From a virus (Duplodnaviria > Caudoviricetes): DNA of 51,303 nucleotides. The translations under genes and the position numbers were made by a program. The stretch is from positions 1-51,303 of the IMG/VR virus record IMGVR_UViG_3300038406_000089; one strand, given 5' to 3'. The notes under the pieces were generated by a model. That model was not told the DNA's origin. It ran no database searches and worked only from the letters and a program-made list of their open reading frames with translations. Shown here in pieces: positions 3,127 to 39,122 of this stretch; position 1 is the stretch's first letter, and every line of letters begins with the position of its first letter.

Positions 3127-3170
3127 ACCAACCCCCTATACTAGAGTAACTAGAGTAGAGCACCGTTGCT

Positions 3171-4223
3171 CTACTCAGTCTCGACCGCGCCGAGATGCGC
3201 ATCGGGAGCATCTGCTACGACGCCAAGGTGATCTTCCTCGAACTGCGCCTTGAGAAGTTGTTCCTTCCACCACTCAGGGAAGCCGCGCGTGATGCCTCGT
3301 GAGATGTGCGGCCATGCCCACTTCCACAACGCACGCTCGATTGCTTCCTTCTCCTCCTGCCCGGTGTCCTTCTGGATCTCGATGAGGAGCTTGCCGATGT
3401 CGCGTGGGCTATCCTCCAGCTCGCCACGCTCGCGCAGATGCTGCACGGCTTTGAGCCAGCGCCCCTCGACACGCAGGCCGGCGATGAGACGTTCGAGGAT
3501 GTCGCCGCTGTTCGGGCTCGTCTCCTTCCACGCCTGTTTGTGAGCTTCCTTGAAGCGCTCCGAGACGAACTTGCCCATCAGCGTCTTCTTGTCCACGCCG
3601 TACAGCTCGACCAGCGGCTTGATGACCACGCCCTCGATGAGCTGACCGCCGAGCACGGACTGGGTGTTGTCGAGGATGTTGCGAAGACTGTCCAAGGTGG
3701 CTCCGTGATAGCCCTGCTCGCTTTCGTTTAGGACAGGCACGCATTCGAGCCCGATACGCTCGAACTCGGCGCGCTTGTCGGTCGGATTCAACCACTCGTT
3801 GTCGCCTGTGCTCACGTCGAAGCCAATCAGGTTGTCGCTCGGCACGCGGTCATATGCGAGCGTATTGTGATTGCGCTTCGCTAGGTACTCCGCTCGATAC
3901 GTCCAGCCTGGGTGCAGAAGATGCAGGCGGAATTTCACGCTCTCTACCGCCTTCGTGAACATCTTCTCGGGCGCGTCAGGATTCATCACGCAGCCCTTCG
4001 AGCGAACACGTAGCTCCTGCACCGTGCCGACACCTGCCGGACAATCGCAGTTGAATAGTCCTACTGACCTGTTACAACCGAGACAGATTTGATCTTCAAA
4101 TAAACCAAACGAGAACTGTGAGCCATCGACCTTCTCTTCCACGATATGCGGGTAGTTCAGCAGCTCGCGCACGGCACGGTGCCCCAGGTTGTAGATCGAC
4201 GGATACGAAGTCCAGCTACTCAT
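3171..4223 (-). CDS. ATP-dependent RNA ligase (Rnl2-like)
   Basis: YPSI N-terminus, motif I EEKVDGSQ, IGFDV, motif IV EGVVIK, motif V KFVSERFKE; start at 4223 has GGAGG RBS. Confidence 0.85.
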   Translation of the reverse strand: MSSWTSYPSIYNLGHRAVRELLNYPHIVEEKVDGSQFSFGLFEDQICLGCNRSVGLFNCDCPAGVGTVQELRVRSKGCVMNPDAPEKMFTKAVESVKFRLHLLHPGWTYRAEYLAKRNHNTLAYDRVPSDNLIGFDVSTGDNEWLNPTDKRAEFERIGLECVPVLNESEQGYHGATLDSLRNILDNTQSVLGGQLIEGVVIKPLVELYGVDKKTLMGKFVSERFKEAHKQAWKETSPNSGDILERLIAGLRVEGRWLKAVQHLRERGELEDSPRDIGKLLIEIQKDTGQEEKEAIERALWKWAWPHISRGITRGFPEWWKEQLLKAQFEEDHLGVVADAPDAHLGAVETE

Positions 4224-4963: not shown

Positions 4964-5160
4964 TATTCACCGTCCTTGATTGCAGCCAGCTCGTAGAGCA
5001 CCCATGTGACTAGCTCAGGATTCGAGTGCATGAGCAGCCTGAGCCCATCCCTGATAGTCTCGCGCGAGTGCTCGCGAACCAGCATGGCGGCTTTGAACAT
5101 ATCAGACATGCAATTCAGACAGTGAAGCTGTTTCACATTTACCTCCCGAACAGCAGCCAC
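4963..5160 (-). CDS. Hypothetical protein
   Basis: ORF tiles between neighbours; start uncertain. Confidence 0.45.
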   Translation of the reverse strand: MAAVREVNVKQLHCLNCMSDMFKAAMLVREHSRETIRDGLRLLMHSNPELVTWVLYELAAIKDGE

Positions 5161-5300
5161 TTCCAGCGTCCGAAGAATCCGCGTCCCGCGAGCGAGATGA
5201 ACTGAAGCCGCGTCAGGCCGATCTCTCGTGCGAGCGACTGAGCGACCACACGCCGCCCCTCGATCTTCGCTGCACGCTTCGTACGATTCTGATTACTCAT
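5139..5300 (-). CDS. Basic protein, possibly HTH-like
   Basis: MSNQNRTKRAAKIEGRRVVAQSLAREIGLTR; GGAGG RBS. Confidence 0.5.
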   Translation of the reverse strand: MSNQNRTKRAAKIEGRRVVAQSLAREIGLTRLQFISLAGRGFFGRWKWLLFGR

Positions 5301-5351
5301 GCGTTCCTCCAGCGGGCGAAGCTGCCCATTGCCACGTGTCTTGTGCATACC

Positions 5352-5684
5352 CTACTCCATGTTCACAATATCGTGAACACGCCACTCTGCGTGAACGTGG
5401 GCGTAATGCCCTGGAACTTGCCAGTAGACGAGCAGCCCGTGACCGTCGAGCCACTCAGCTAGTCCAGCAAGATCCGTGCCATGCCAATCGAGCGCTCGAT
5501 CCTCGTAGTGTGCGCTGTTGCGCGAGTGAACATGGTCATTCGCCGATACCACCGTTAGCTCATTCCCCGTGCGCACTGCCCAGATGTCCGCGATATCGAA
5601 CAGTGCGTGATTGAGCTGTCCCTCCAAGCGGACAGGAACGCGAAGCCCTTCAACTACCGTGGCCTGCCCGCTGCGGTAGGGGGG
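5352..5684 (-). CDS. Peptidase M15-type (Hedgehog/DD-peptidase fold) domain without a convincing start of its own
   Basis: SANDHVH...SAHYEDRALD...HVHAEW (H-x6-D...H zinc ligands); see the frameshift finding. Confidence 0.75.
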   Translation of the reverse strand, partial: PPYRSGQATVVEGLRVPVRLEGQLNHALFDIADIWAVRTGNELTVVSANDHVHSRNSAHYEDRALDWHGTDLAGLAEWLDGHGLLVYWQVPGHYAHVHAEWRVHDIVNME

Positions 5685-6659: not shown

Positions 6660-6830
6660 TCACTTGTCTTCCTTCTCCTTCGTGCCGTCCACCGCAACCA
6701 CATGCCAGTTGCAGAGATTGAATCCTCCCTGCACAGGCTGCGGCTCGCCCACCTTGTAGGCGTCACGATGGTTGACTGCTTCGACAATGCGTGCTCTCGT
6801 CCACACTTCATAGACTACGAACTTTGCCAT
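6660..6830 (-). CDS. Hypothetical protein
   Basis: My translation: MAKFVVYEVWTRARIVEAVNHRDAY...FNLCNWHVVAVDG. Confidence 0.5.
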   Translation of the reverse strand: MAKFVVYEVWTRARIVEAVNHRDAYKVGEPQPVQGGFNLCNWHVVAVDGTKEKEDK

Positions 6831-7171
6831 TAGAGTAATCCTTTCAGGTAATCGAGCACCACGAGACGCGGGAAGTTGGTCGCGTAGTAGAAGTCATACC
6901 AGCTGCCAGTAACCAGTAGACCGGCGATGATGACAATGGTAAGACCGAAGAAGCCGGCGATGCCTTCTTCTCCCATTGTGAACTCGTAGACGATCATCAG
7001 AACGCCAAGCACAGCAAGTGCCACGCCAGCCCACCACCCTACCGTGGCCTGGAGAATCGCAGCTCCGACAATGTCCTGCAACACAGCCGGGAGCTGATCT
7101 GCGCCCGAGTTGGCAAGGTCGATCATCCGGCGAACGAACTCCTGAAGCGCGTCGGTAATCTCCGGTGTCAT
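6830..7171 (-). CDS. Two-TM membrane protein, first gene of the leftward arm
   Basis: AAGGAGGAG RBS; two hydrophobic helices; PRLVVLDYLKGLL C-terminus. Confidence 0.75.
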   Translation of the reverse strand: MTPEITDALQEFVRRMIDLANSGADQLPAVLQDIVGAAILQATVGWWAGVALAVLGVLMIVYEFTMGEEGIAGFFGLTIVIIAGLLVTGSWYDFYYATNFPRLVVLDYLKGLL

Positions 7172-7195
7172 ATGCTCCTCCTTCGTTCACTGGCA

Positions 7196-7535
7196 TGCAA
7201 CCTCCATGCCTGCCCCGGTCCAAGCGAGAATGGACTGCCCCGGTCCCGCCGAATCCAGACCCCGGCCTGCATGCAAAGCACGTGCCATGCGGCGACTGGC
7301 ACGCACCTTGCATGCGGCGCGCGCTTGGCACGGAGCTTGCTTGTGCTTCGTGTCCACTTCGCTGTCTCGGAATAGCACGCGCTAAACTACTCCAGTAGCA
7401 CGGCTTGTGCCAACCTGTTCCACCCTAGAACACGCCTATGTTTCGAGACGGAGCATACGCCAGCGTCCACGATTGCGGACAATCGGCGTTTTCCTTAGTG
7501 TTTTCGTGTCCTAACGGTATGGCATGACGTGTGCT
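7196..7535. promoter_or_regulatory. Divergent cluster of six sigma-54 (-24/-12) motifs
   Basis: Minus: AGGCATGGAGGTTGCA 7196-7211, TGGCACGTGCTTTGCA 7272-7287, TGGCACAAGCCGTGCT 7397-7412. Plus: TGGCACGCACCTTGCA 7297-7312, TGGCACGGAGCTTGCT 7326-7341, TGGCATGACGTGTGCT 7520-7535. All keep GG-N10-GC spacing. Confidence 0.8.
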
Positions 7536-7595
7536 CTATACGGTGGCGTGAGCCGATGGCGTGAGCCGACAAGCTCAAAGCACACGGAGGATGTC

Positions 7596-8090
7596 ATGCA
7601 ATCATGGCAGGGAAAGCCTGCCAGCGTCTTTTACTGGCCTGAACTCGGCCAATGGTTCGGCCGCGATGCGAACGGTTCGCACGTGGCGATTACTGAAAGG
7701 GAGGCGATAGAGCGTATGGCAGAGACAACTAGCGCACGTTGTTACGAGCACAGGGACAGAGACACGCTGCCGTCACTCTGTCACACGTGCCAGCGTATCG
7801 CAGTCGAGCGAGACATCGTTACGCGCGCTATCGATGCGCTCGTTTTGGCAGGCTATCAGGTTCGCGAGTCTGAAGACGGAGCATTTACGGATACCCGTTC
7901 CGTCTTGCTCAATCTGCTGTTTGACCTTGATGACGCGTTCGTTATCGCCAATCACAAGGAATCCGGTAAATCTGGCTGGGTTCGCTTCGTGTTCGGCAAT
8001 GACGGATACGACGTTATCAGCGACTACACTATCAGTCTTGAGTCTGTGCTAGCGCCAGTCAACGCTTACGCCGATACGCTGGCAGTCTAG
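7596..8090 (+). CDS. First early-region protein
   Basis: GGAGG RBS before ATG 7596; C-terminal GWVRFVFGNDGYDVISDY motif. Confidence 0.75.
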   Translation: MQSWQGKPASVFYWPELGQWFGRDANGSHVAITEREAIERMAETTSARCYEHRDRDTLPSLCHTCQRIAVERDIVTRAIDALVLAGYQVRESEDGAFTDTRSVLLNLLFDLDDAFVIANHKESGKSGWVRFVFGNDGYDVISDYTISLESVLAPVNAYADTLAV

Positions 8091-8102
8091 GAGCGCAAGC
8101 AC

Positions 8103-8297
8103 ATGAGCAAGTTTGACTACCGTGACCCTGGAACGGACGCGCGATACTGCAATGGCCTATCTCCGTATCCTGCCGCACCTGATGATGCCGAGTGCTGTGC
8201 ATGGTGCGGGGACATCCTTCCAGACGACAAGCACTATCCGTATTGCTGTTCACTGTGCGGCATTCATGCTGAGCAAGACTCAGCGGAAGGGAAGTAG
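8103..8297 (+). CDS. Early zinc-finger protein
   Basis: CAWC...YCCSLC; AGGAG RBS. Confidence 0.6.
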   Translation: MSKFDYRDPGTDARYCNGLSPYPAAPDDAECCAWCGDILPDDKHYPYCCSLCGIHAEQDSAEGK

Positions 8298-8299
8298 AC

Positions 8300-8506
8300 A
8301 TGACTGAGCTTATCGTAATCGCGCATGCTGTCGTTTTCTTGCTTGTCCTGTTCGCTGTGACTGCTGGTATCGTGGCACTCGCGAGCAGGGCGTATCGTCG
8401 GAGCGTTCGACCGTCCACGCATCGCCACTATACGCCGTATGGTGGCGCAAGGGAGATTGCACGCCGTAAGCGACAGCTAGAACGCGGTATCGTTCGGTGT
8501 AACTAA
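8300..8506 (+). CDS. Early single-TM protein with basic tail
   Basis: Long hydrophobic N-terminus; GAREIARRKRQL. Confidence 0.6.
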   Translation: MTELIVIAHAVVFLLVLFAVTAGIVALASRAYRRSVRPSTHRHYTPYGGAREIARRKRQLERGIVRCN

Positions 8507-8535
8507 ACTCGTCACACAGAAAGGGAGATTGCATC

Positions 8536-8772
8536 ATGCCTCGTATCGCTCGCAAACGTAACGCTGTTCTCGATTACCTCCGCAAGTGGAAAAGCGACAC
8601 GGATAGCAATATTGCGCTGTCGCTCGACATGCCTGCTCCGTCCGTCCGTCGATGCATTCAGGAACTCATTCACGAAGGACACAACGTCACTTTCGCTAGC
8701 GCGACTGGCCTGTATACGCTCACGTTCACTCAGGCGCCCGAGACTTCGGCGCCTAGCACGGAGGTTGTCTAA
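8536..8772 (+). CDS. Winged helix-turn-helix protein
   Basis: NAVLDYL...IALSLDMPAPSVRRCIQELIHEGH...GLYTL. Confidence 0.7.
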   Translation: MPRIARKRNAVLDYLRKWKSDTDSNIALSLDMPAPSVRRCIQELIHEGHNVTFASATGLYTLTFTQAPETSAPSTEVV

Positions 8773-8773
8773 C

Positions 8774-9127
8774 ATGGCAAAGGACCAAGCAATCACGCGC
8801 AATCTTGCGGACGCACAGACAGCGCACGCATACCGCAAGCTCGCTGCAGAGCGACAGGGCGATAGCGTCCTGTATACGCTCTACACCGAAGATTACCCGA
8901 ACCTTATCGAGCTTGTGTCTCGATACTTTCCGGGCGCTACGCTCTACTACGCGATTGGTTGGTGGCAGGGTGGCATAGAGTCTTCGCGCGTAATCGAGAT
9001 TGTCGGCAAGCATGACGACTTGCAGCGCATCGTCCACCTTGCTGGCGATATCCGCCACGTGAACAATCAATCGTCTGTGCTCGTCACGTGGGCGCCCGTC
9101 AATTCGCTGCTCGTATCGGAGCCTTAA
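8774..9127 (+). CDS. Early hypothetical protein (ferredoxin/PII-like pattern)
   Basis: GGAGG RBS; YFPGATLY...GWWQG..E.S.VIEI...NNQSSVLV. Confidence 0.65.
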   Translation: MAKDQAITRNLADAQTAHAYRKLAAERQGDSVLYTLYTEDYPNLIELVSRYFPGATLYYAIGWWQGGIESSRVIEIVGKHDDLQRIVHLAGDIRHVNNQSSVLVTWAPVNSLLVSEP

Positions 9128-9129
9128 CC

Positions 9130-9276
9130 ATGTCGCGCGCATTGTCCGCAGTGTGGGCACTCATCAAGCATAGGCTGTTCTGTCGCCATGAATACATCAG
9201 GCGATACGAGCGACATTGCATCTATCTGGAGTGCTTGCACTGTGGACGCGAAACGGAAGGATGGTTGATAGACTGA
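9130..9276 (+). CDS. Small Cys/His protein
   Basis: FCRHEY...CLHCGRET. Confidence 0.5.
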   Translation: MSRALSAVWALIKHRLFCRHEYIRRYERHCIYLECLHCGRETEGWLID

Positions 9277-9887
9277 TGCCGCGATGCCAATTCGACAAGC
9301 GCAAGGATGAACTCTGCGAGAACTTGCGCATGCTTTGGAACACTCGCGAGCTTGCAGATAACACGGATGGCGCCGCATGGTATCCGAAAGCGCAAGCTAT
9401 CGTTAGCGAGTGGGCGCAATCGTTCGGCATCCAACGTGAGACGGTTGCTTGTGTGGTTGCTGCACTGTCGCCACAAATCGACTGGGAACGCAATCTCATC
9501 ATCGCAGACGATATCTTGCATGGCTTACCGCCTAGTATCCGAGGATTGCAATCAAACGTCACGAAAGCGCAGCGTATCCTTGCTGATGGCGCTACCGATA
9601 CGCTGCTCTACTTCCCGCAAGGCCCCAAGGTGGCATCGTTCGCGCGCAACCTATGGGGCGATATGTCATTCGTGACGGTCGATACACACTGCATTCAGGC
9701 TGCTTTGAACGATGCCGCAAGCACAGTAACGCTCCGATGGACGCCGTATACCGTGTTCGCAGAATGCTACGCGACCGTCGCGCGTGAGCTTGACTTGCAG
9801 CCTGCTACGTTTCAGTCAATCATCTGGCACACGTGGAAGCGCTTGTATCCTCGCATGCGCAAGCATGCGCTTAGAAAGCGATGGTAA
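9276..9887 (+). CDS. Phage protein with DNA-glycosylase (HhH)-like motifs
   Basis: WY..A, AALSPQIDWERN, GPKVASFARN, VTVDTH, FQSIIW; catalytic-like Lys and Asp. Confidence 0.65.
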   Translation: MPRCQFDKRKDELCENLRMLWNTRELADNTDGAAWYPKAQAIVSEWAQSFGIQRETVACVVAALSPQIDWERNLIIADDILHGLPPSIRGLQSNVTKAQRILADGATDTLLYFPQGPKVASFARNLWGDMSFVTVDTHCIQAALNDAASTVTLRWTPYTVFAECYATVARELDLQPATFQSIIWHTWKRLYPRMRKHALRKRW

Positions 9888-10039
9888 GCCGTGATAATGC
9901 GTCTATGGTGCGCATGGTGCGTATGGAACACGGAACACAAACACATCAACGGTAACACGTGGCAATGCCTCGCATGTGAGCGATACGGCAAAGCTAGCGA
10001 AACACTGGCATCGGCACTCTACAAAAGGAGATAACGACA

Positions 10040-10303
10040 ATGAACGTAACGCACACTGATAACCTGAAACCGCGTCCGCTTTGCGTGATTGCTGCAGAGA
10101 TTGCGCGCGATTGGAAGCAACCGTATTTCGGCGCTGTTCCGTATCTGCAGGCCATGCGCAATCTTGGCGACATCAGCGAGGATTACGACTGCGATAGCGC
10201 TGTCTCGGTTGTGCTCTACTTCTTGAGCAACGCGAACACGTGGCGTGGGGAAACCGCAAGGCGCATCAAGGCGGAACTCAAATCGATTGTGAAGGGACGG
10301 TAA
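10040..10303 (+). CDS. Conserved early phage protein
   Basis: AAGGAG RBS; RPL..IA.EI..DW..PYFGAVPYL.AM...YFLSNA.TWRGETARRIKAELK. Confidence 0.75.
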   Translation: MNVTHTDNLKPRPLCVIAAEIARDWKQPYFGAVPYLQAMRNLGDISEDYDCDSAVSVVLYFLSNANTWRGETARRIKAELKSIVKGR

Positions 10304-10307
10304 GCAC

Positions 10308-10496
10308 ATGGCAACCATTCGACTGCTCGTAACGGTTGAAACGGACGATAGCGCTATTGCTGTCACTTCGCAGCAAATCAGAGACGAGATAGCGTCTAAC
10401 CTCGAATACGACCCCGGAGAATACGGCATCGTCTCGTCCGAGGTTGCTATCTGCGATGATTACCGTGGACGCATCGTAGGGAGTCACGAACGATGA
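10308..10496 (+). CDS. Small acidic early protein
   Basis: 62-aa Asp/Glu-rich ORF in a tiled operon. Confidence 0.55.
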   Translation: MATIRLLVTVETDDSAIAVTSQQIRDEIASNLEYDPGEYGIVSSEVAICDDYRGRIVGSHER

Positions 10497-10693
10497 GCGA
10501 CACATACCGCATCGTCCGACACTACTTCAACGGGCCTCCGTATCGACGCACAATCGAGACTGGCCTATCGTTGGAACAAGCACAAGCTCACTGCCAGAAC
10601 AAGGACATATCGTCAAGCACCGGCACATCAGCGAGCGCACGCAAGCGAACGCGTGAACGTGGTCCGTGGTTTGACGGATACGAACAGGAGTAG
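10493..10693 (+). CDS. Early hypothetical protein
   Basis: YRIVRHYF...TGLSLEQAQAHC...WFDGY. Confidence 0.65.
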   Translation: MSDTYRIVRHYFNGPPYRRTIETGLSLEQAQAHCQNKDISSSTGTSASARKRTRERGPWFDGYEQE

Positions 10694-10695
10694 TA

Positions 10696-10905
10696 ATGCC
10701 TGAGAAAACCGAACAGGAGTATCGACGCGATTGCAAGTGCAACGATTGCGAGGATACGCGCAAAGTGCTCACCCTGCTGGACGATATCGCTACTTCAGAT
10801 TGTGCAATGGGCATGTATGACGTTGATTGTCTGTGCGAAGCTCGCGAAGTGCTCGCACGCGTCATCGGCGCCAACTACAACGAAGGGACAAACCGCTATG
10901 ACTAA
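10696..10905 (+). CDS. Early hypothetical protein
   Basis: AGGAG RBS; Cys-containing and acidic. Confidence 0.5.
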   Translation: MPEKTEQEYRRDCKCNDCEDTRKVLTLLDDIATSDCAMGMYDVDCLCEAREVLARVIGANYNEGTNRYD

Positions 10906-11131
10906 GCCACATTTCGACCATGCAGCCTCAATGGTGCGCGCTATCCTCGCAGGCGAATGGACGAACGAGTTACCCGATTGGGCGCAATCGGTTGTCGCAT
11001 ACGGATACGATACGTATCCGCGTGTGCGTGCAGTGCAGACAGCAGAGGCATTCTTGCTGCTGTTCACGGCATTCAATCCACGTTTCAAACGTGATAGGTT
11101 TCTCAAAGCCTGCGGTTTGATTGGAGAGTGA
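10898..11131 (+). CDS. Early hypothetical protein
   Basis: MTKPHFD..A...NPRFKRDRFLKACG motif. Confidence 0.65.
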   Translation: MTKPHFDHAASMVRAILAGEWTNELPDWAQSVVAYGYDTYPRVRAVQTAEAFLLLFTAFNPRFKRDRFLKACGLIGE

Positions 11132-11134
11132 AGC

Positions 11135-11320
11135 ATGTCCCCAGACTTCGACTTGTGCGGTAACATCATGGCCTACGAATCTGGCGAGCTTGATGAAGTG
11201 GAGATAATCGAGCTTTTCCAGCACCTTGTCGATACTGGCCTAGTGTGGAGCCTGCAAGGTCATTACGGACGCATGGCCGAGCGGTTGATTGATTCGGGCC
11301 TCGTGATTGCGAAAGGATAG
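11135..11320 (+). CDS. Small acidic early protein
   Basis: [38 protein letters not shown]. Confidence 0.7.
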
Positions 11321-11324
11321 GCCA

Positions 11325-11504
11325 ATGAAACTAACCGATGATGAGCTTGCTTTGTGCAGCGAAGCGCTGAGGATTGCTAGCGCTTACCTGCTCGAACAGG
11401 CGGAATGGTTCGAGCGCACACTACCAAGGGCGAACGCTCCCGAGGTATTCCGCAAGTATGCCGAACAGATGCGCGATGTTCAGAAGCGCATTGAAGCGAG
11501 GTAA
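11325..11504 (+). CDS. Early helical protein
   Basis: AAGGA RBS; MKLTDDELAL... Confidence 0.55.
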   Translation: MKLTDDELALCSEALRIASAYLLEQAEWFERTLPRANAPEVFRKYAEQMRDVQKRIEAR

Positions 11505-11510
11505 GCACAT

Positions 11511-11717
11511 ATGAAAGTCTGCTCAAAGCATCCGAAGTATCGCGGCCTTTCGAAACCGCGTAGCACGTGCGAGCGTTGTTGGCAAATCTGGTTCGGTATC
11601 TGCGATTACTGCGTCAACAGCGGTTGCAGCGTGCTTGATACAGATTGCGACCTATGCTGCAGCGACACACCATACGATGAGGAGAATTGCGAAGTTGTTG
11701 TTCGCCGCAAGCGCTAG
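11511..11717 (+). CDS. Cys-rich early protein
   Basis: CSKHPKY.G...PRSTCERCWQIW plus further Cys pairs. Confidence 0.6.
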   Translation: MKVCSKHPKYRGLSKPRSTCERCWQIWFGICDYCVNSGCSVLDTDCDLCCSDTPYDEENCEVVVRRKR

Positions 11718-11730
11718 CCCGCCTGCACTC

Positions 11731-11773
11731 GGGACTATACTCTAGCAAGCTCTAGTAACTAGAGTATAGTCCC
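11731..11773. repeat. 15-bp perfect inverted repeat closing the early operon
   Basis: GGGACTATACTCTAG (11731-11745) / CTAGAGTATAGTCCC (11759-11773); no U-tract. Confidence 0.8.
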
Positions 11774-12161: not shown

Positions 12162-12236
12162 TGGGTGGGCGCCGGGACTCGAACCCTGATCGCTCGGTTC
12201 ACAGCCGAGTGCTCTGCCAGTTGAGCTAGCGCCCAC
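12162..12236 (-). tRNA. tRNA-His (GUG)
   Basis: G-1/TGGGCGC...GCGCCCA/C73-CCA; D arm GCTC/GAGC; anticodon arm CTCGG-CTGTGAA-CCGAG; TTCGAGT loop; irregular T-stem. Confidence 0.88.
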
Positions 12237-12503
12237 ATGAGTCACTGACGCCGCGATCTGCGGTCAGCCCAGTCGATGAGGAGCTGAAGCGCGATCATGG
12301 CGAAGATCGTGATGGCGATGGATGTAGCGGTCATCAGAGCACTCGATACAGCAGATCAACAGGACCGAACTGTGCCATGTAGCGGTTGAGCCAGTCGAGA
12401 AGGCTCATGCTGTTGTCAACGACGATGGTGTCCACCGAGCGCATGTCTCGGCACTGGATGATGTACTTTTCTGATCGCATCAGTATGCCTCTGTATTCTG
12501 TGG

Positions 12504-12580
12504 TGGTTGGGGAGGCAGGAATCGAACCTGCTCGATACCTCGGGTCCAGACCGAGTGACTCACCTTTTGTCCACTCCCCA
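12504..12580 (-). tRNA. tRNA with Gln-like body; anticodon ambiguous (CUG out of register, or UGG)
   Basis: TGGGGAG/CTCCCCA acceptor, A73, CCA; GAC/GTC D-stem; CTCGG-TCTGGAC-CCGAG; GCAGG-TTCGATT-CCTGC. Confidence 0.85.
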
Positions 12581-12585
12581 TCCCG

Positions 12586-12819
12586 CTAGTACAGCCTCTT
12601 CCCTTCCTTGACCATCCGCAGCGCCGCACGTAGCTTCGACGTGCCGCGCGCTTTGTTGTGCATGCGAGTGTGCTCGCCGCGCTCCATCACGCGGCGGTTC
12701 GTCTTCGAGTTGTCGGCCTTGTCTTCGTTCACGTGATCCACGACTTCGCTGGTCTTGAGCTTGCGCCCAAGCTCTACCTCAGTTAACGAGCGGTGATGAT
12801 CGGATTTTCTGTCCCGCAT
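12586..12819 (-). CDS. HNH endonuclease-like protein
   Basis: HR...E..LGRKL...EVVDHVNEDKADN...N..VM...EH.RMH. Confidence 0.75.
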   Translation of the reverse strand: MRDRKSDHHRSLTEVELGRKLKTSEVVDHVNEDKADNSKTNRRVMERGEHTRMHNKARGTSKLRAALRMVKEGKRLY

Positions 12820-13850: not shown

Positions 13851-13929
13851 TGCAAACACCGTGCCATCTGTGCTAATATGGAATGCGGGAGGCAGATGGT
13901 GTCCACTCGTCGCAGCAAGAAGCGTGCCA
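13851..13929 (-). promoter_or_regulatory. Two sigma-54 motifs (minus) bracketing a plus-strand extended -10
   Basis: TGGCACGGTGTTTGCA 13851-13866 and TGGCACGCTTCTTGCT 13914-13929 on the minus strand; TGCTAATAT on plus at 13871-13879. Confidence 0.7.
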
Positions 13930-14636
13930 AGAAGCCGGGTCGCCCTCGAAACCTGGGGCCACTCTCTCCCAAGCCCGTCGCTGAGGCACCGAACTCCCCG
14001 GCATCCCTCCCTCTGCCGGGTCGAGGCGATGAGACGCCATCTGCCCCCACTACCGCTCTGGAGCTGTCTACGCCGTGCCCGCGTTGCGGTGCCAAGCACA
14101 GTGCTGCTGCAACCGAATGCGGCCTATGCGGTCTGAACTTGCAGCAGTCGGTCGTCCCTGAGAAGAAGCCGCACTGGTGGCGCCCGGCTGACTCGGAGAT
14201 CCGCAAGAAGGCGATCAAGATCGTCCTCATGCGCTCGTCGGGCATGGAAGACGCGGAGATCGCTGCTGCTCTCGGAATCGGACTCAGGACTGTCTCCAAT
14301 TACGTACAGGTCGCGGGCAAGAACGGCTGGCTCGAATCCGATCTCGTCGCTGACCCGAAGGAGAGACTCGAATACGACCTGATGCACAAGGTCGTGCGCA
14401 ACATGGCAGAGTCGCTTGACAGCTACAATCCGGTGACGCGCCATGAAGCGGCGATGGAGATCGCGAAGGGTACGCTCTTCAAGAAGTTCGCAGAGGCCGG
14501 ACCCGCAGTTCAGAACACCAACGTCCTGAAGATCCAGATCATCCAGGCGCCCGGCCCGCCGATTCAGATTCGCGAGGAGACGACTGGCGGCATGCCAGCA
14601 TACGTCGAAGGTGAAGTCGTCGGGGAGAGCAAGTAA
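13896..14636 (+). CDS. Probable terminase small subunit (zinc ribbon + HTH)
   Basis: GGGAGG RBS at ATG 13896; CPRC...CGLC; GMEDAEIAAALGIGLRTVSNY HTH; immediately upstream of the large subunit. Confidence 0.65.
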   Translation: MVSTRRSKKRAKKPGRPRNLGPLSPKPVAEAPNSPASLPLPGRGDETPSAPTTALELSTPCPRCGAKHSAAATECGLCGLNLQQSVVPEKKPHWWRPADSEIRKKAIKIVLMRSSGMEDAEIAAALGIGLRTVSNYVQVAGKNGWLESDLVADPKERLEYDLMHKVVRNMAESLDSYNPVTRHEAAMEIAKGTLFKKFAEAGPAVQNTNVLKIQIIQAPGPPIQIREETTGGMPAYVEGEVVGESK

Positions 14637-14640: not shown

Positions 14641-16215
14641 ATGCTCAAGGAAACAAAACTCCCACCGGGTTGCGGAGCGGACCTGAACGAGCCGCTCCTG
14701 CACAATCCCTACCAGCAGGCATTTCAGGATGCGCGCCGGCAGCGGTTCTGTCTCAACTGTCGCACGATTGGCTCGATGGACATCAATAGCGTGTTCATCT
14801 GCCGACGTTGTCAGACTCGCCACTTCAGCAACCTGACCGCTCCGCGTCTCTTCGACCGCCTGCTTGTGCTTGCGGGTCGAGGCGGCGGCAAGACCCTCAT
14901 CGGTGCGCACGCTGCGCGCGAGGAGATGATGGTTCCTGACTCTATCGGGTGGGTCATGGGGCCGACGTACAAGATCCTCCACGACTCGACGTTCCCGACG
15001 CTCGTGCGGCGCATCCCGCCTGCGTGGGTGCAGCGGTGGGATCCCGAACACATGGAGATCCGCCTGACGAATGGCGCCCTCGTGGCCTTCCGTTCCCTCG
15101 AAGACCCCGAACGAGCGCGAGGCCCGCACGGTGTCTCCTGGGGCTGGTTCGATGAGGCTGCGCAGTCTCCCGAGCGCGCGTACGACGTGTTCGAGCCGAC
15201 GCTGATCAAAGCTGGCGGCATCGTGATCGCAACAACGACCGTGCTCGGCTACGACTGGACGTACGACAAGATCGAGAAGCGCGCCCAGGTCTACAAGGAG
15301 CCCGGCTACTGGGCGACCCGTTACTGGACGGAGGAGAATCCCCTGTTCAGGACGAGCCCGGTCATGGCGCGTCAGATCGAGCGTGCTCGCAAGACGATGT
15401 CTCCTGAGTTCTTCGCGCAGGAATACAGGGCCGAGCGCCGCAACGCAAGCGGGTTGATCTACAGCTACGAGCAGATCGAGAAGCAGACGCTGCTCGACGC
15501 CGAGGCGGTCAAGAAGTTCATCCCCGAGTGGCCGAACATCGATCCGTCGCGTCCTATCCTCATCGGGCTCGACTCCGGTGCGGACCATCCGTTCGGTGCC
15601 GTGCTGGTCGTCGTGACGCCGAAGGGGCTCGTAGTCGTCAAGGATTACCTGAAGCGCAATCAGGCGCTATCGCAGCATCTACCATCAGTGACGATGGACT
15701 TCGGTACGTCCAGATTCGTGGACGTTAAGTGGGCAGCGAACAAGAACGAGGCGAACCTGCGACTGGAGTGGGGTCTGAAGGGCGTTGGCATCATCCCTGC
15801 CGAGAACAAGCACGAGATCGGCATCCAGCGTGTGCAATCGTGGCTTCACAGCGGTCAGCTCTACTTCGCGTACACAGCAACCGCAACCATCGAGCAGATG
15901 CGCGCGTACCGCTACGCCGACAACCTGAAGTCTGACGGTCAGAAGCGTGTGAAGGAAGATGTCTTCAAGCTGAAGGACGAGCTTCCAGATGCACTACGCT
16001 ACGCGCTGATGGCGTGGCCGGCGCTCCCCGATGCTGATAGGCCGGCGATGACACCGCAGGAGGAACAGCGCTGGAACGCGCTCGATGATCGCAGCCGCGC
16101 TGATATCGAACGTCTGCGCGAGTTCAACAAGCGCAACACGGATCAGGATCTTCAGCCCGAGGAATCTGGCTTCCCCATCGGGAGCTTCTTCTCGCCGCTG
16201 TCTCAATCTTGGTAA
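14641..16215 (+). CDS. terL: Terminase large subunit
   Basis: Walker A AGRGGGKT, Walker B WFDEAA, motif III ATT, RNase H-like GLDSG and DELPDALRY. Confidence 0.92.
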   Translation: MLKETKLPPGCGADLNEPLLHNPYQQAFQDARRQRFCLNCRTIGSMDINSVFICRRCQTRHFSNLTAPRLFDRLLVLAGRGGGKTLIGAHAAREEMMVPDSIGWVMGPTYKILHDSTFPTLVRRIPPAWVQRWDPEHMEIRLTNGALVAFRSLEDPERARGPHGVSWGWFDEAAQSPERAYDVFEPTLIKAGGIVIATTTVLGYDWTYDKIEKRAQVYKEPGYWATRYWTEENPLFRTSPVMARQIERARKTMSPEFFAQEYRAERRNASGLIYSYEQIEKQTLLDAEAVKKFIPEWPNIDPSRPILIGLDSGADHPFGAVLVVVTPKGLVVVKDYLKRNQALSQHLPSVTMDFGTSRFVDVKWAANKNEANLRLEWGLKGVGIIPAENKHEIGIQRVQSWLHSGQLYFAYTATATIEQMRAYRYADNLKSDGQKRVKEDVFKLKDELPDALRYALMAWPALPDADRPAMTPQEEQRWNALDDRSRADIERLREFNKRNTDQDLQPEESGFPIGSFFSPLSQSW

Positions 16216-16556: not shown

Positions 16557-18965
16557 ATGCCTGACTTCAATCAGCTCTTCAAAGCATCTGAGCCCGCAAT
16601 CAAGACTCCACTCGCGAAGGAGACTGGAGACGCCGAAGGTATGGCGCTCGGGACGTACGACGACCAGGAGCTGCTCGATCTCTGGGAGCGACTGAAGCGG
16701 GAGTCCTTCGACTCGCGTTGGGTCTTCGAGCGTCAGTGGATGCGCAATATCTACTACATCCTCGGACGCCAGTGGATCGAGTATCACGCTCGTCACGGCG
16801 GGTGGAAGGACAAGCGCATGGCGGCGTGGATTCCGCGCCCCGTCACGAACAAGTGCAAGGAGACTGTGCAGGCGCTGCGTGCGGTCTTCACCGACATCCA
16901 TCTCGGCGTCAACGTGCGCCCGAACGGATCCGATCCGAAGAACGTCTCGGCGGCTGCTGTGGCTGACGAGCTGTCCAACGTGCTGCACGAGTCGCACAGC
17001 ATGGACTCGGTACTGAGCGAGTTCGACTTCTGGCTGCTCGCGACCGGCAATGCCTTCTTCCACACGTTCGTAGACTACGACATCAAGTACGGCACCATCC
17101 GAGACATGATGGAGCAGTGCGTGGCGTGTCAGGAGATCACGCCGTCGAGCAAGCTCGTAGGCGCCACCCCGGTATGCCCGTCGTGCGGAGCTAGCGAGTT
17201 CCAGCCTGCGCTCGATGACGAGGGTATGCCGATGGTCGATGAGAAGCCGGTGGGTCGTCCGAAGACGATTCCGCTGTCTCCGCTCGAACTGGCGTTCCCG
17301 AACTCGTATCCGCGCTTCGAGGAGCTTCCCTACGTCGTGCGCATGCGCTGGCGTACGAAGGCATACTTCGAGACGCATCCGAAGCTGAAGGAGCTGGTGC
17401 CGACAATCGTGTGGCAGAAGTCGCCGCAGGATCAGTCGCTCCAAATTTTCAAGTCGCTGGCGAATCACAACGATCTCGGTATCTCGCCCTCGTACTGGGC
17501 CGAGAGTGGCTCTCCGTCCCTGCAAGAAGACGGCATCACCGAGTACGAAGTGTGGATGAAGCCGAACGATGCGTACCCCGAGGGTCTGGTCTTCCGCGTC
17601 TACGGAGACTCGAAGCCCATAGTGGCGCATCTGGAGGATACCGAGGAGCTTCCTGGCCCACTCCCGTACAGGGACGCTGATGGCAAGCCGCTCTTCACGT
17701 TCACGCACGCCGGCTACGATCACGTTGGTGGTCGTATTCTCGCGTCCGGCCCCATCGACCAGATCGCGCAGAAGCAGGACCAGCTCAACCAGCTCGACTC
17801 CATGATTCTGCTCATCATTCAGCGCATGGCGAACCCCGTGTGGCTGGAGCCGAAGGGTGCGGAGATCGAGCGTCTCACGGGCGTTCCCGGTCTGGTGATC
17901 AAGTGGAACCCGCTGACGGTCGGTGGTCAGGCCAAGCCCGAGCGTATTCCTGGTGAAAACCCGCCAGCCTCGCTTTTCCAGATCCGCGAGCAGTATCTGC
18001 GCGATATCGAGGAGCTGGTTGGCACATACGATATCATCAAGGGTGCGAAACCGACAGGTATCGAAGCGTTCTCGGCGCTTCAGCTCCTGGTCGAGCGCTC
18101 GCAGTCGCGATTCTCGCCGATTTTCCAGGCTCGCGGCACTGCGTACAAGGACTGGTACAAGTTCGCCATCGAGTTGGAGCGCGAGTTCGGCCCCGAAGAG
18201 CGCACGAAGTCCGTTCTGTCGCCTTCGCGCACCTGGACGTTCCAACAGTTCAAGCGAACGCAGCTCCAGGGCTCGATTTCCATCATCGTGGAAGACGGCA
18301 GCACCGTGCCGAAGACGAATCTCGGTATGCGTGCGGCTATCGAGCACGCGAGTGGGCTCGGGATGTTGAATTTGCAAGATCCCGACCAGCAGTACGAAGG
18401 TCTGAAGATGTTCGGGCTCACGCGGCTCGTGCCATCGCTCGATATTCACGTTCAGCGAGCACTCCAGAAGCATCAGCAGTTCGAGGAGTGGCTGATGGAC
18501 GAGCAGCAGCTCGTGCAGTTCGTGCAGAACGCGGAGCAGGACCAGCTTGCATATCAGGAGCAGGCTCAGGTTGCACTGGCGCAGCCTCCACAGGTTGATC
18601 CTATGACCGGCATTGCTGCACCACCGCAGTTGCCGCCTGCGCCGTCGCCGCTCGAACACACGCCCCTGAAGTGGCGCCCGTGGTACAGCCCGCGCGTCCA
18701 CAAGCAGGAGTTCGAGAAGTGGGCAAACTCGGATCGCATGATCGAGCTGCTCGCAGCCAAGCCGTTTGCGGAAGGTCTACTGGAGGCACACTATGCGGAG
18801 ATCAATCTGGCACTCGCTGAGCAGGAAGGCATGGTCCCAGGTGAGAGCGGCGCTCCTGTTCCTCAAGGTCGAGGGATGGCGATGCGCAACAGCAATCGGG
18901 AGTCTACGCAGGGCGTAGAGCCGAAGGGACAGAGCCAGGGCAATCAGGGCGCTGGCCCGGTCTAG
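16557..18965 (+). CDS. Portal protein
   Basis: Position and size; YILGRQW, IAQKQDQLNQLDSMI...MANPVW, IEELVG, Gln/Pro-rich C-terminus. Confidence 0.88.
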   Translation: MPDFNQLFKASEPAIKTPLAKETGDAEGMALGTYDDQELLDLWERLKRESFDSRWVFERQWMRNIYYILGRQWIEYHARHGGWKDKRMAAWIPRPVTNKCKETVQALRAVFTDIHLGVNVRPNGSDPKNVSAAAVADELSNVLHESHSMDSVLSEFDFWLLATGNAFFHTFVDYDIKYGTIRDMMEQCVACQEITPSSKLVGATPVCPSCGASEFQPALDDEGMPMVDEKPVGRPKTIPLSPLELAFPNSYPRFEELPYVVRMRWRTKAYFETHPKLKELVPTIVWQKSPQDQSLQIFKSLANHNDLGISPSYWAESGSPSLQEDGITEYEVWMKPNDAYPEGLVFRVYGDSKPIVAHLEDTEELPGPLPYRDADGKPLFTFTHAGYDHVGGRILASGPIDQIAQKQDQLNQLDSMILLIIQRMANPVWLEPKGAEIERLTGVPGLVIKWNPLTVGGQAKPERIPGENPPASLFQIREQYLRDIEELVGTYDIIKGAKPTGIEAFSALQLLVERSQSRFSPIFQARGTAYKDWYKFAIELEREFGPEERTKSVLSPSRTWTFQQFKRTQLQGSISIIVEDGSTVPKTNLGMRAAIEHASGLGMLNLQDPDQQYEGLKMFGLTRLVPSLDIHVQRALQKHQQFEEWLMDEQQLVQFVQNAEQDQLAYQEQAQVALAQPPQVDPMTGIAAPPQLPPAPSPLEHTPLKWRPWYSPRVHKQEFEKWANSDRMIELLAAKPFAEGLLEAHYAEINLALAEQEGMVPGESGAPVPQGRGMAMRNSNRESTQGVEPKGQSQGNQGAGPV

Positions 18966-19018
18966 CAAGAACCATGCCAAGCGTGGTATAATCAGTCTCG
19001 TAAGCAAGTAGCTTGCCA
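18964..19018. promoter_or_regulatory. Extended -10 (TGGTATAAT, plus) between two minus-strand sigma-54 motifs
   Basis: TGGCATGGTTCTTGCT 18964-18979 and TGGCAAGCTACTTGCT 19003-19018 (minus); TGGTATAAT 18984-18992 (plus). Confidence 0.75.
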
Positions 19019-19053
19019 TCCCGGCCTCCATCCGGGTTACAAAGGAGTAAATC

Positions 19054-19887
19054 ATGGCAGCAGAGGGAACAGTTGACAACGGAGCCGTAGACACCACGAA
19101 GCCGGACACTACCACTACGGCGGTAGAGAAGCCCGGTGCAGTCGATCAGCGGAAGCCCGACACGACGAAGCAGGATACCAAACCTGAGCAAAAAACTGGG
19201 GATGATCGTCGCGATCAGGGCGTTCTCGCGGATCTCATCAAAGAGCGAAAAGCGCGTCAGGCGGCAGAAGCACTCGCAGCCAAGCATCAGACCGAACTCG
19301 AAGCCGAGCGGCGTCGGGTAGCGGCACTGGCTGGCGTCACTCCGCGCAGCAAAGACGAAATCGACGCCGAGGAAGTTCGACAGCAGTTCTCGCGCCTCTT
19401 TCCTGGGCTTGCCAAGCTGAACGATCAGCAGGTAATGGAAAAGTTGGAGAGGATTCTCTCCAACGCCGACACCCACGAAGACACGACGACTCGCTACTGG
19501 AACGACCGAGCGGCTCAGATGACGGGCGCTGTTGTGGAAGCAGTCTCCAAGGAGCTGGGAGGCGATCTCAGCGAGCGTCAGGTTCGGCGTATTCGTGCTG
19601 CGTACGCAAACGCAGCGGAGAGCGACCCCGAGTTCCTCCGCAGGCACGAAGAGGGCGACAAGACGCTCATCGCGGAGTTTGCGAAGGAGTGGATCGAGGA
19701 TTGGTTCGAGCCCGCTCGGCGTAAGGTGACATCAACCGAGGTTGACAGGCTGCGGCGCGTGCCCAGAGGAAATGACCGAACGGTCATCGCTGGCAAGCCG
19801 AAGCAGATCGACTTCAAGAACCCGAAGGCCGTTGAGGATGCGATGATCGAGTCTTATCGCGCTCACGGAGGCACGTTCGGGGAATAA
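19054..19887 (+). CDS. Capsid scaffolding protein
   Basis: Between portal and capsid; disordered N-terminus, KERKARQ coiled coil; AAGGAG RBS. Confidence 0.75.
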   Translation: MAAEGTVDNGAVDTTKPDTTTTAVEKPGAVDQRKPDTTKQDTKPEQKTGDDRRDQGVLADLIKERKARQAAEALAAKHQTELEAERRRVAALAGVTPRSKDEIDAEEVRQQFSRLFPGLAKLNDQQVMEKLERILSNADTHEDTTTRYWNDRAAQMTGAVVEAVSKELGGDLSERQVRRIRAAYANAAESDPEFLRRHEEGDKTLIAEFAKEWIEDWFEPARRKVTSTEVDRLRRVPRGNDRTVIAGKPKQIDFKNPKAVEDAMIESYRAHGGTFGE

Positions 19888-19899: not shown

Positions 19900-21192
19900 A
19901 TGGGCGCAGATACCACAGCTCTTTCCGGCCTTGCGAAAGACGTATTCGAGCAGGGCATTTCCGAGGGCGTCAACAACAGCTTCCCGCTGACCGAGGAGTT
20001 CCCGGTCGAGCAGGTTGACTGGAAGGGCGGGCTCGGGCATAAGTTCTCGCATCACCACGGGCGTAACGTCTCGCCGTTCTTCGCAGGCGAGGATTCAGCG
20101 TATCCGGTCGCCGGCCAGCAGCTCCACTCGCAGGGCCGTATCGACATGCGTAAGATGATGGCGCGTCTGCGGATGACCGAAGAGGCGATGGCCGATCTGG
20201 TCAGCTCCGAGGCGTCGTTCCGCAACGGCATGACCGACGAGAAGACGCGACTCGTGGACGACATCGCTCGTCGCGAGGAGCACGCGCTCGGCATGGACGG
20301 TCGCGGCGTTCTCGCGCTCGTTGACTCGGGCAGCTCTGGTACGACTATCGAGCTGGACGCTCCCGGCAACATTGCGGGCAACGACTTCGGCAACCGCTTC
20401 ATCGACGTGGGCATGTACATCGCGGCGGTCAACCCCGCCACGGGTGCGCTCCGCTCGAACGTCGAGAAGGTCACGGCTGTCAACAGCGACGGCTCGGACG
20501 TGACGGTCGAGGCCGATCCTTCGTGGACGGAGAACGACTACATCGTTCACGCCGCGAACACGTCGGTGACGGACATCCTCGATACGTCGTACGAGAAGGC
20601 GTACTGGGGTCTGCCGGCTCTGATCGATGACGGTACCAACCGCGACAACTACTACGGCATCCTGCGCTCGCAGGTCGAATCGCTGAAGTCGTACGTCGTG
20701 TCTTCGGTCGGCGCGCTCTCGCTCGACGTGGCGCAGCGGACCAGCGACGTGGTCTTCCAGAAGCTCGGCGGGATCATCAACGTGATCCTGATGCACCCGA
20801 GCGTTCGGCGCGAGTATATCAAGCTGCTCGACGCTGATCGGCGCTACACCAGTGGCGACCTTCAGAACCCGAACGGCGGAACCCGTGCGTTCACTCAGGG
20901 CGACCTGAGCATCGGCGAGGTTGCGATCAAGGCGCTGCGGTCAGTCGGACTGGCTCAGGTCTACTTCCTCGACACGAAGAAGTCGGGGTTCAAGCGTTAC
21001 GTTGCGGAGCCGGGCAAGTTTATGGACCGCGACGGAAGCGTCTGGGTGCGCGAGGGCAGCGGCACGACCGCTCGTCACGCGTACGAGGCGACCTACTTCT
21101 CGCGGAAGCAGTACTTCGCGAAGAATCCGGGGCTCAACGCGCGTTGGGATGGCGTGACCGGACAGACGCTCGTTGTCGTGCGTGACCTGTAA
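19900..21192 (+). CDS. Major capsid protein
   Basis: 430 aa, strong codon bias, GED...P...Q, DDIARREE...G.DG.G, GLPALI, ILMHP; followed by a strong hairpin. Confidence 0.85.
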   Translation: MGADTTALSGLAKDVFEQGISEGVNNSFPLTEEFPVEQVDWKGGLGHKFSHHHGRNVSPFFAGEDSAYPVAGQQLHSQGRIDMRKMMARLRMTEEAMADLVSSEASFRNGMTDEKTRLVDDIARREEHALGMDGRGVLALVDSGSSGTTIELDAPGNIAGNDFGNRFIDVGMYIAAVNPATGALRSNVEKVTAVNSDGSDVTVEADPSWTENDYIVHAANTSVTDILDTSYEKAYWGLPALIDDGTNRDNYYGILRSQVESLKSYVVSSVGALSLDVAQRTSDVVFQKLGGIINVILMHPSVRREYIKLLDADRRYTSGDLQNPNGGTRAFTQGDLSIGEVAIKALRSVGLAQVYFLDTKKSGFKRYVAEPGKFMDRDGSVWVREGSGTTARHAYEATYFSRKQYFAKNPGLNARWDGVTGQTLVVVRDL

Positions 21193-34893: not shown

Positions 34894-34968
34894 TGGCACG
34901 CTTCTTGCGCTGCTTTCGTGTGAATCTACCCCCACTCATCCGCAAGTAGTAGTGGCACTGCTCTTGCA
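34894..34968 (+). promoter_or_regulatory. Tandem sigma-54 motifs upstream of the accessory block
   Basis: TGGCACGCTTCTTGCG 34894-34909; TGGCACTGCTCTTGCA 34953-34968; then GGAGGAG RBS and ATG 35001. Confidence 0.78.
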
Positions 34969-35705: not shown

Positions 35706-35722
35706 CAACGAAAGGGTTTCCA

Positions 35723-37051: not shown

Positions 37052-37359
37052 TCGCCACCTACGCAGCGTGGGCTGTCTTTCTCGTAGTGCAGAATGCCTC
37101 TTTTACGTTCGTTAGCCGTGCTCGCAATTCCGGTAGTTACGCACTGCACGCAATCGCGGCAGTTCTGTCGAACGGCGTCTGGATAGCCTCGCAGTTCGTA
37201 TCGCTGTCTATTCTGCTCGACGTGATACACAACGGGTCGTGGGGGCAAGCGCTTTTCGTCGGTGCGTTCTACACTACATTCACTGTACTTGGGTCGATAG
37301 GCATGCACTGGGTCGGCATCAACTACATTGAAAAGGGGAAGCGAAGGGTGGGTGCATGA
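37048..37359 (+). CDS. Three-TM membrane protein
   Basis: QNASFTFVSRARNSGS...LSNGVW; hydrophobic helices. Confidence 0.7.
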   Translation: MIATYAAWAVFLVVQNASFTFVSRARNSGSYALHAIAAVLSNGVWIASQFVSLSILLDVIHNGSWGQALFVGAFYTTFTVLGSIGMHWVGINYIEKGKRRVGA

Positions 37360-37502
37360 GCGCTCCTCTTCTCGCGGCTGTGACGCTCGCATACCTATGG
37401 GTCGCCATCGGGTATGCGCGCGAACACAGATACGGCATGACAGTTGCATTCCTCGCATATGCGCTCGCCAATGTCGGTTTCATACTCGATCTACGGAGGT
37501 AG
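37356..37502 (+). CDS. Small two-TM protein
   Basis: My translation: MSAPLLAAVTLAYLWVAIGYAREHRYGMTVAFLAYALANVGFILDLRR. Confidence 0.6.
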   Translation: MSAPLLAAVTLAYLWVAIGYAREHRYGMTVAFLAYALANVGFILDLRR

Positions 37503-37504
37503 CG

Positions 37505-39062: not shown

Positions 39063-39122
39063 AGCCGTGGTAGACTGGAGGGGTGAGATAATTTCTTACC
39101 CCTCTGGTCTGGAGTCACGTAC

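Follow-up and report, generated by a model that had tools for sequence, protein, structure and literature searches.

Phages are thought to start transcription on sigma-70 promoters or to bring a polymerase or sigma factor of their own. Promoters of the sigma-54 (RpoN) class follow another consensus, which was reportedly given by Barrios et al. in 1999 as TGGCAC-N5-TTGCW. Their elements lie at -24 and -12 (PMC11704786). Bacterial examples such as glnAp2, pspA and nifH, with the activators NtrC, PspF and NifA, respectively, combine this consensus with a GG-N10-GC spacing and stand 30-100 nt before their genes. The present analysis concerns sites of this kind in a complete, uncultured phage from sediment, the 51,303-bp IMG/VR record IMGVR_UViG_3300038406_000089, which is referred to in its whole length as the window. 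The phage sites are like the bacterial promoters in spacing, consensus and distance to genes. Unlike them, they have no nearby activator gene or recognisable upstream activator sequence, and six of them are packed into 340 bp of a virus genome (the hub) in tandem, back-to-back and face-to-face arrangements. The best explanation, held with moderate confidence, is that the phage uses sites for the host sigma-54 holoenzyme as promoters.

The closest described phage is YuA, reportedly a Pseudomonas aeruginosa phage presented by Ceyssens et al. in 2008. According to PMC5053324, YuA requires host sigma-54 for its development, and one of its promoters, mapped by ONT-cappable-seq, is tied to a sigma-54-like promoter region in a passage of PMC10914365. 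In the YuA record (NC_010116), three promoter-trap fragments, each in sense orientation within the structural region, carry the annotation '-24/-12 consensus, high activity', and one of them lies directly before the scaffold gene; no product of the bacterial enhancer-binding protein (bEBP) type is annotated in this record. Like the present phage, YuA is without an RNA polymerase of its own, and its sigma-54 dependence has been reported, whereas that of the present phage is proposed from its sequence. The two phages are not related by descent. With at most one mismatch to the perfect pattern TGGCAC-N5-TTGC (the relaxed pattern), YuA has no site in 58.7 kb and none in the annotated fragments, as against 17 sites, nine of them perfect, in the window. 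The sense sites of YuA are weak matches to the motif and belong to the structural region, whereas in the present phage sense sites precede the early and replication operons, and sites near the scaffold gene run antisense. Elsewhere, the phage protein Htm has a bEBP-like structure without the GAFTGA loop (bioRxiv 10.64898/2026.10.06.757011), and a Pectobacterium phage gives a sigma-54-like HHpred hit (PMC7693777); phage sigma-54 promoters are reported in neither case. A search of the main texts of articles returned no phage with documented sigma-54 promoters except YuA.

The motif is strongly enriched in the window. The strict pattern TGGCAY-N5-KTGCW occurs 12 times, whereas 100 dinucleotide shuffles gave 0.24 occurrences on average and never more than 2. 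Under a second-order Markov model (60 simulations), 0.17 perfect sites were expected and no simulation exceeded one, compared with the nine observed, and 2.6 sites with at most one mismatch were expected compared with 17, all of which have constant spacing. Reversed-sequence controls of the window gave 0 and 2 sites, and 11 unrelated viral loci (118.6 kb) gave no perfect and eight one-mismatch sites. Four of five near-full-length relatives share the excess, their strict hits numbering 7, 7, 5 and 6, where the reversed sequences give 0, 0, 1 and 1. The earlier note on this DNA had asked for comparisons with shuffled sequence and with related phages. Two positions that the search leaves free also agree with the RpoN consensus: across the window and the five relatives, where the relaxed pattern yields 60 sites, the position after TGGCAC is G in 34 and the position after TTGC is A or T in 50.

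Placement shows the same tendency, in a weaker form than had been proposed. The sites were said to lie all at operon boundaries; by our own gene calls, only nine of the 17 relaxed sites are intergenic, in a window with about 10% intergenic DNA. Those at 5466, 7008, 1369, 13914 and 35048 lie within open reading frames (ORFs), all but 13914 in sense orientation, and the one-mismatch sites 26094, 28279 and 34647 within structural genes are probably due to chance. Across the six genomes, 36 of the 60 relaxed sites are intergenic, as are 24 of 37 strict hits in their full length, where intergenic DNA makes up 7-23%. Most of these intergenic relaxed sites (28 of 36) are co-directional with the next gene. 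The sites have the GG-N10-GC spacing, the free consensus positions and the gene-ward placement of sigma-54 promoters.

The hub is a 424-bp gap (7172-7595) between two divergent gene arms. All six of its motifs, three per strand, have the exact GG-N10-GC spacing that had been noted for them. On the minus strand are a sigma-54-like site with two mismatches (AGGCATGGAGGTTGCA, 7196-7211), a perfect leftward site (TGGCACGTGCTTTGCA, 7272-7287), and a sigma-54-like leftward site (TGGCACAAGCCGTGCT, 7397-7412). The plus strand carries the perfect rightward sites TGGCACGCACCTTGCA (7297-7312) and TGGCACGGAGCTTGCT (7326-7341), and the sigma-54-like TGGCATGACGTGTGCT (7520-7535), 60 nt ahead of gene 7596-8090. 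The back-to-back sites 7272 and 7297 are separated by 9 nt and together make up a 19-nt inverted repeat. Sites 7297 and 7326 form a 29-nt tandem, which is faced by site 7397; tandems of 28-30 nt also occur in the relatives G003 and G005. Since their footprints would overlap, the six hub sites would not all be occupied together. The predicted +1 of site 7196 falls at about 7185, just 5' of the ribosome-binding site AAGGAGGAG of gene 6830-7171, and the predicted starts from 7520 and 34953 also lie just 5' of ribosome-binding sites, in agreement with the positions first suggested.

Several further elements surround the hub sites. Two exact copies of CTGCCCCGGTCC (7210-7221 and 7235-7246, plus strand, 25 nt apart) occur nowhere else in the window and are candidates for an operator or enhancer. 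A tandem 13-nt repeat, CGGTGGCGTGAGC / CGATGGCGTGAGC (7541-7566, plus strand), covers approximately +1 to +20 of the 7520 site and is a candidate operator. A terminator-like hairpin (7470-7485) with a T-run (together 7470-7495, plus strand) could end an RNA of 145-170 nt begun at 7297 or 7326. This predicted RNA folds modestly better than its shuffles (z-score -2.6), strong folding is predicted for the leftward leader RNA (z-score -3.4), and no Rfam family was found in the hub or in the predicted 145-170-nt RNA. A consensus scan detected no sigma-70-type promoter in 6800-8200, and 10 in the whole window, of which two are mostly intergenic. As a separate observation, the hub 12-mer GGCGTGAGCCGA (7545-7569, plus strand) recurs with one mismatch at 1073-1084 and 1171-1182 on the minus strand, 98 nt apart; by a rough estimate, chance would give about 0.2 extra matches of this kind, and a regulator site is possible.

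Outside the hub, the three pairs listed in the earlier note (13851/13914 and 18964/19003 on the minus strand, 34894/34953 on the plus strand) are all present. The perfect site 13851-13866 precedes the leftward HNH/tRNA operon, and its perfect tandem partner 13914-13929, also on the minus strand, lies in the first 34 nt of ORF 13896-14636. On the plus strand, TGGCACGCTTCTTGCG (34894-34909) is the first of a tandem set ahead of gene 35001-35705 and the exonuclease gene 35723-37051. The perfect site 34953-34968 stands 32 nt ahead of the ATG at 35001, with an AGGAGG ribosome-binding site 3' of its predicted +1, and the perfect site 35048-35063 lies 48 nt into ORF 35001-35705. Another perfect site (5466-5481, minus strand) is located within ORF 5352-5627 in sense orientation, 117 nt before gene 5139-5348, and its 16-mer is also found in the relative G002. 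Two further minus-strand sites, 7008 and 1369, lie within ORFs in sense orientation.

The capsid protein identifies 17 related IMG/VR loci at 62-85% identity, and the five near-full-length relatives compared are G001, G002, G003, G004, and G005. Perfect sites number 7, 3, 3 and 4 in G001, G002, G003 and G005, with 0, 0, 0 and 1 in the reversed controls. The early and replication genes of the relatives are mostly not alignable with those of the window; the placement of the motif matches nonetheless. At the terS-like gene, which occupies the small-terminase position (13896-14636 in the window), each of the five motif-bearing genomes has divergent sites, in most cases a tandem pair, that point into an HNH/small-gene operon. 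The window, G003, and G005 have sites ahead of the exonuclease operon, G001 and G002 ahead of the polymerase-exonuclease gene, and G002, G003, and G005 at 57-75 nt upstream of an orthologous 280-amino-acid gene (cluster 21). The early divergent gap carries sites in four of the five motif-bearing genomes; at the early divergence of G002 there is a single site, 29353, with one mismatch and, by our own calls, within the first gene. A search for close relatives with the hub itself returned none. The hub-flanking protein 7596-8090 matches distant phages only, by its C-terminal half, and those loci show no motif excess. From these comparisons of genomes, the motif excess is specific to this phage clade.

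A second arrangement, which is a new finding of this work, concerns the structural genes (structural arm 13896-34892, plus strand), an arm that has no sense sigma-54 site in the window. Across 900 bp around the portal-scaffold junction of the 17 related loci, there are 21 antisense and no sense sites, with 0 and 2 in controls. At least one antisense junction site is found in 13 of the 17 loci, often paired, just after the portal gene. In the window, these are the minus-strand sites 18964-18979, which is sigma-54-like and lies at the portal stop, and TGGCAAGCTACTTGCT (19003-19018), ahead of the scaffold-position gene 19054-19887. The eight intergenic sites of the six genomes that are directed away from the next gene all face structural genes, and each is either at the portal-scaffold junction or beside a -10 box on the opposite strand. 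On the other strand, which is the sense strand of the structural genes, an extended -10 box often lies exactly 4 nt past the end formed by TGGCAC, such as TGGTATAAT (18984-18992, plus strand), 4 nt past site 18964. Similarly, TGCTAATAT (13871-13879, plus strand) stands ahead of the terS-like gene and is overlapped by site 13851, and similar extended -10 boxes occur in G001, G002, G003, and G005. A -10-like hexamer is present at the exact offset in seven of 60 sites, against 0.47 expected, and among the 13 junction loci at the exact offset in six and within 1 nt in eight.

On the sense strand, the reverse-complemented -12 box reads as a -35-like TTGCAA, GTGCCA falls into the spacer, and the extended -10 box follows; because these three line up, a sigma-70-type late promoter would overlap the sigma-54 site. 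The arrangement looks like overlapping sigma-54 and sigma-70-type late promoters, and the two recognition sequences physically overlap at 13851, at 18964 and in relatives. A further search of such main texts found no antisense composite of a sigma-54 site and an extended -10 box. The nearest parallel is found in Escherichia coli, which has intragenic or antisense sigma-54 sites and where sigma-54 is described in a section of Bonocora et al. 2015 (PMC4591121), citing Zafar et al. 2014, as binding in an inactive state and repressing at overlapping promoters. In the phages, too, a sigma-54 site coincides in part with a second promoter, and sites face away from the adjacent gene. Unlike the E. coli case, the overlap geometry in the phages is fixed, with junction sites in 13 of 17 loci, six of them with a -10 box at the exact offset, and repression in the phage is proposed.

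Two small features were observed at the same junction. In G001, an ORF for a 156-amino-acid HNH_3 endonuclease (L045 3276-3746, plus strand, corresponding to G001 43276-43746) is placed in antisense orientation between the genes for portal and scaffold and starts 15 nt after the perfect sigma-54 site of the junction pair. In the window, a small hairpin (19021-19037, cccgg...ccggg) stands just ahead of the ribosome-binding site of the scaffold gene, and by eye it is also seen in the related loci L002, L005, and L008.

In the mechanism that we infer from the enrichment, positions and conservation of the motifs, RpoN binding, promoter activity, timing, an activator and occlusion would each have a part. 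It is quite likely that the sites are real binding sites of the RpoN holoenzyme, and rather probable, with more reserve, that those in sense orientation serve as functional promoters for the early, replication/exonuclease and tRNA/HNH operons. The leftward hub sites 7196, 7272 and 7397 would feed the replication and nucleotide-metabolism arm (7171 through the junction to 40146, about 18 kb, minus strand). The rightward sites 7297 and 7326 would feed a short RNA possibly ending at the hairpin 7470-7495, and 7520 would feed the arm of 13 small genes (7596-11717, plus strand). Sites 13851 and 13914 would drive the short leftward HNH/tRNA operon, which starts near 13866 on the minus strand, and 34894 and 34953 the exonuclease operon of the exonuclease/peptidase arm (35001-39996, plus strand). 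Since no recognisable bEBP is encoded, opening of these promoters would need either a host bEBP, which might act from solution, or a novel type of phage protein. On the late arm, sigma-54 polymerase bound at the antisense sites would exclude sigma-70 polymerase from the extended -10 promoter; alternatively, antisense transcription across the 3' end of the portal gene would damp late expression during the sigma-54 programme. A more speculative extension, which is rather improbable as a whole, is a two-way timing in which about 10 sigma-54 promoters of early and replication genes are fired by an unrecognised phage factor outside the AAA+ class or by a host activator that is independent of enhancers, and sigma-54 polymerase parked antisense silences the late extended -10 promoters until its release.

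The view that the motifs are sigma-54 promoters was thus partly borne out, by the statistics, the intergenic and co-directional bias, the free consensus positions and the conserved placement. The broader suggestion that the phage may run largely on RpoN is best confined to the early, replication/exonuclease and tRNA/HNH operons, which are preceded by sense sites, and does not extend to the structural arm, which has none. The earlier statement that the phage encodes neither a sigma factor nor a bEBP nor an RNA polymerase stands within the reach of six-frame hidden Markov model searches. In the window, Sigma54_DBD, Sigma54_CBD and Sigma70_r2 are absent; a T7-type RNA polymerase (PF00940) is likewise absent from the six frames, a weak negative as the control genomes were silent too. 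No bEBP is present among the 56 window proteins by Pfam and PHROGs, where the P-loop proteins are an AAA_25 helicase, a weak AAA_24 match and a PNKP kinase. The two candidate DNA-binding proteins named in the earlier note, both with a possible helix-turn-helix (HTH), are 8536-8772, a weak IclR-type HTH match, and 13896-14636, a weak HTH_23 match plus a zinc ribbon, which lies directly before the large terminase gene in the small-terminase position.

Several points weigh against promoter use of the sites. Sigma-54 complexes without an activator stay closed, and an activator-dependent sigma factor for early phage transcription would, to our knowledge, be unusual. The activator domain Sigma54_activat (PF00158) is absent from the six frames of the window and of the five relatives, and no convincing shared 8-mer, as expected of a common upstream enhancer, was found between -220 and -8 of all sites. 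The missing activator gene lowers the case for a self-contained sigma-54 system, not that for sigma-54 promoters as such. Eight of the 36 intergenic sites aim away from the next gene. Several sites lie 12-15 nt from a start codon (13851 in the window, 7150 and 43245 in G001, 23667 in G002), so that transcripts from them would be near-leaderless mRNAs without the apparent ribosome-binding site. The relative G004 has no site at up to one mismatch, where chance alone predicts 2.2. The gene layout comes from our own simple and crude gene caller, on whose calls the placement depends. A capsid-alignment search of 185,579 bacterial and archaeal species genomes gave no host match, and because no host genome was found in it, the host rpoN gene is assumed. 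No RNA sequencing run with the phage was found.

G004 (loci L055-L057) has structural genes in common with the window at 33-62% identity. It may serve as a natural negative control, with a host without RpoN or another programme.

Among the rival explanations, the one that survives best, which is nevertheless unlikely, is that the sites bind sigma-54 polymerase yet mostly remain unfired, as a decoy, as insulation between operons or as occlusion of neighbouring promoters. The lack of an activator gene and of a shared enhancer would fit such silent complexes, as would the crowding of the hub, where the 29-nt tandem and the 9-nt back-to-back pair leave too little room for joint occupancy, the overlap of antisense sites with extended -10 boxes, and the inactive binding and repression at overlapping promoters described in the cited section of PMC4591121. 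This is countered by the co-directional position of 28 of the 36 intergenic sites at promoter-like distances from the next gene, by the retention of sites ahead of specific orthologous operons, and by the lack at the hub of an alternative sigma-70 promoter for silent complexes to regulate.

Marginally less likely still is an operator, that is, a binding site of a phage or host DNA-binding protein unrelated to RpoN that merely resembles the -24/-12 elements. The half-sites TGGCA and TTGCA, 11 nt apart, can be read as a direct repeat on one face of the helix, the motif occurs in both orientations relative to genes, and the small HTH-like proteins 8536-8772 and 13896-14636 are available in the phage. 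This is opposed by the match to the RpoN consensus, which reaches positions that were not selected for, and by the invariant spacing; moreover, the terS-like protein, at the small-terminase position, is the sole HTH protein common to all motif-bearing relatives.

It is improbable that the hub is chiefly a replication origin, in which the promoters give priming or activating transcripts and the repeats are iterons, a role that would be compatible with sigma-54 promoters. The hub heads the replication arm at the cumulative GC-skew minimum (approximately 8-10 kb), it has two pairs of short direct repeats, and its leftward leader folds strongly. Against this, the skew minimum coincides with the strand switch of the genes, each repeat is present only twice, and the motif is found at too many places for all of them to be origins. 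An artefact of chance or composition is practically negligible: the window has 59% G+C and some one-mismatch sites within genes are at chance level, but the excess of perfect sites over the simulations, the zero count in reversed controls and the retention in relatives oppose it.

Four other candidates were rejected. A terminase pac site does not agree with the spread of the motif across the genome; a sigma-70-family phage sigma factor or T7-type promoter is contradicted by the 5-nt spacer and the absent genes; and a restriction site would be avoided rather than enriched by phages. The possibility that every site is the -35/spacer portion of a sigma-70 promoter on the other strand fails since a properly placed -10 box accompanies only seven of 60.

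The remaining features of the genome are those of a tailed phage by gene content. Both ends of the record (1-127 and 51177-51303) are identical, an exact 127-bp overlap. The minus-strand ORF 3-827 extends past the left end, spanning the overlap, and because it runs off that end the sequence is best read as a circle. The 127-bp 'direct terminal repeat' may have arisen as an overlap when a circular or circularly permuted genome was assembled, instead of being a physical terminal repeat. The structural arm includes the large terminase (14641-16215), the portal (16557-18965), and the major head protein (19900-21192), and internal-virion-like proteins are also encoded. Replication and processing genes comprise a family-A DNA polymerase (43725-46439), the AAA_25 helicase (1908-2945), a Mre11-like exonuclease (35723-37051), and, on the minus strand, an RNA ligase (3171-4223) and a polynucleotide kinase-phosphatase (AAA_33 + HAD_PNKP, 42225-43112). 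Two minus-strand tRNA genes, tRNA-His (12163-12236) and tRNA-Pro (12504-12580), are present, of which tRNA-Pro was called by ARAGORN and not by Rfam at its gathering threshold. The RNA ligase, the polynucleotide kinase-phosphatase and the two tRNAs together look like the tRNA-repair kit that phages deploy against anticodon nucleases. The first leftward-arm gene (6830-7171, minus strand) encodes a membrane-like protein of 113 amino acids with a weak NfeD_membrane match, for which no IMG/VR relatives were found. The first rightward-arm gene (7596-8090, plus strand) encodes a protein of 164 amino acids assigned to phrog_4158, for which the ESM Atlas gave no function. Another early-arm protein (9276-9887, plus strand) has a strong DUF7178 match (E 4e-38).

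Long palindromes at 11730-11765, 3127-3165 and 1855-1880, built on CTATACT/CTAGAGTA-like words, stand at the ends of gene blocks and are probably bidirectional terminators. Strong GGAGG-type ribosome-binding sites, signal peptides and a lipobox-like N-terminus, as judged by eye, suggest a Gram-negative host. No close cultured phage was found, the DNA polymerase and terminase hitting cultured phages only distantly. Contigs of four DNA runs from sediment were compared with the window: one of 285 nt, from another run, agrees with it at every position of 7264-7548, and one of 151 nt covers 5434-5584 with 17 differences. The contigs gave no usable information on variation at the motifs. One contig of the likely source run skips 256 nt at 12331-12588, with seven other letters in between, and thereby loses ORF 12334-12480 and tRNA-Pro; it may represent a coexisting natural deletion variant.

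The sigma-54 sites of this clade are far clearer and denser than those of YuA, and they are kept before orthologous operons without an activator gene, which raises the question of what opens sigma-54 promoters during infection. The fixed antisense overlap with late extended -10 promoters suggests that late genes may be timed through competition of sigma factors. If the two-way timing outlined above were true, a viral early-to-late switch would arise from competition between two sigma families. With dense, near-consensus and conserved sigma-54 sites in a phage clade that carries no activator gene, much of the expression of these phages probably depends on the sigma-54 of the host.

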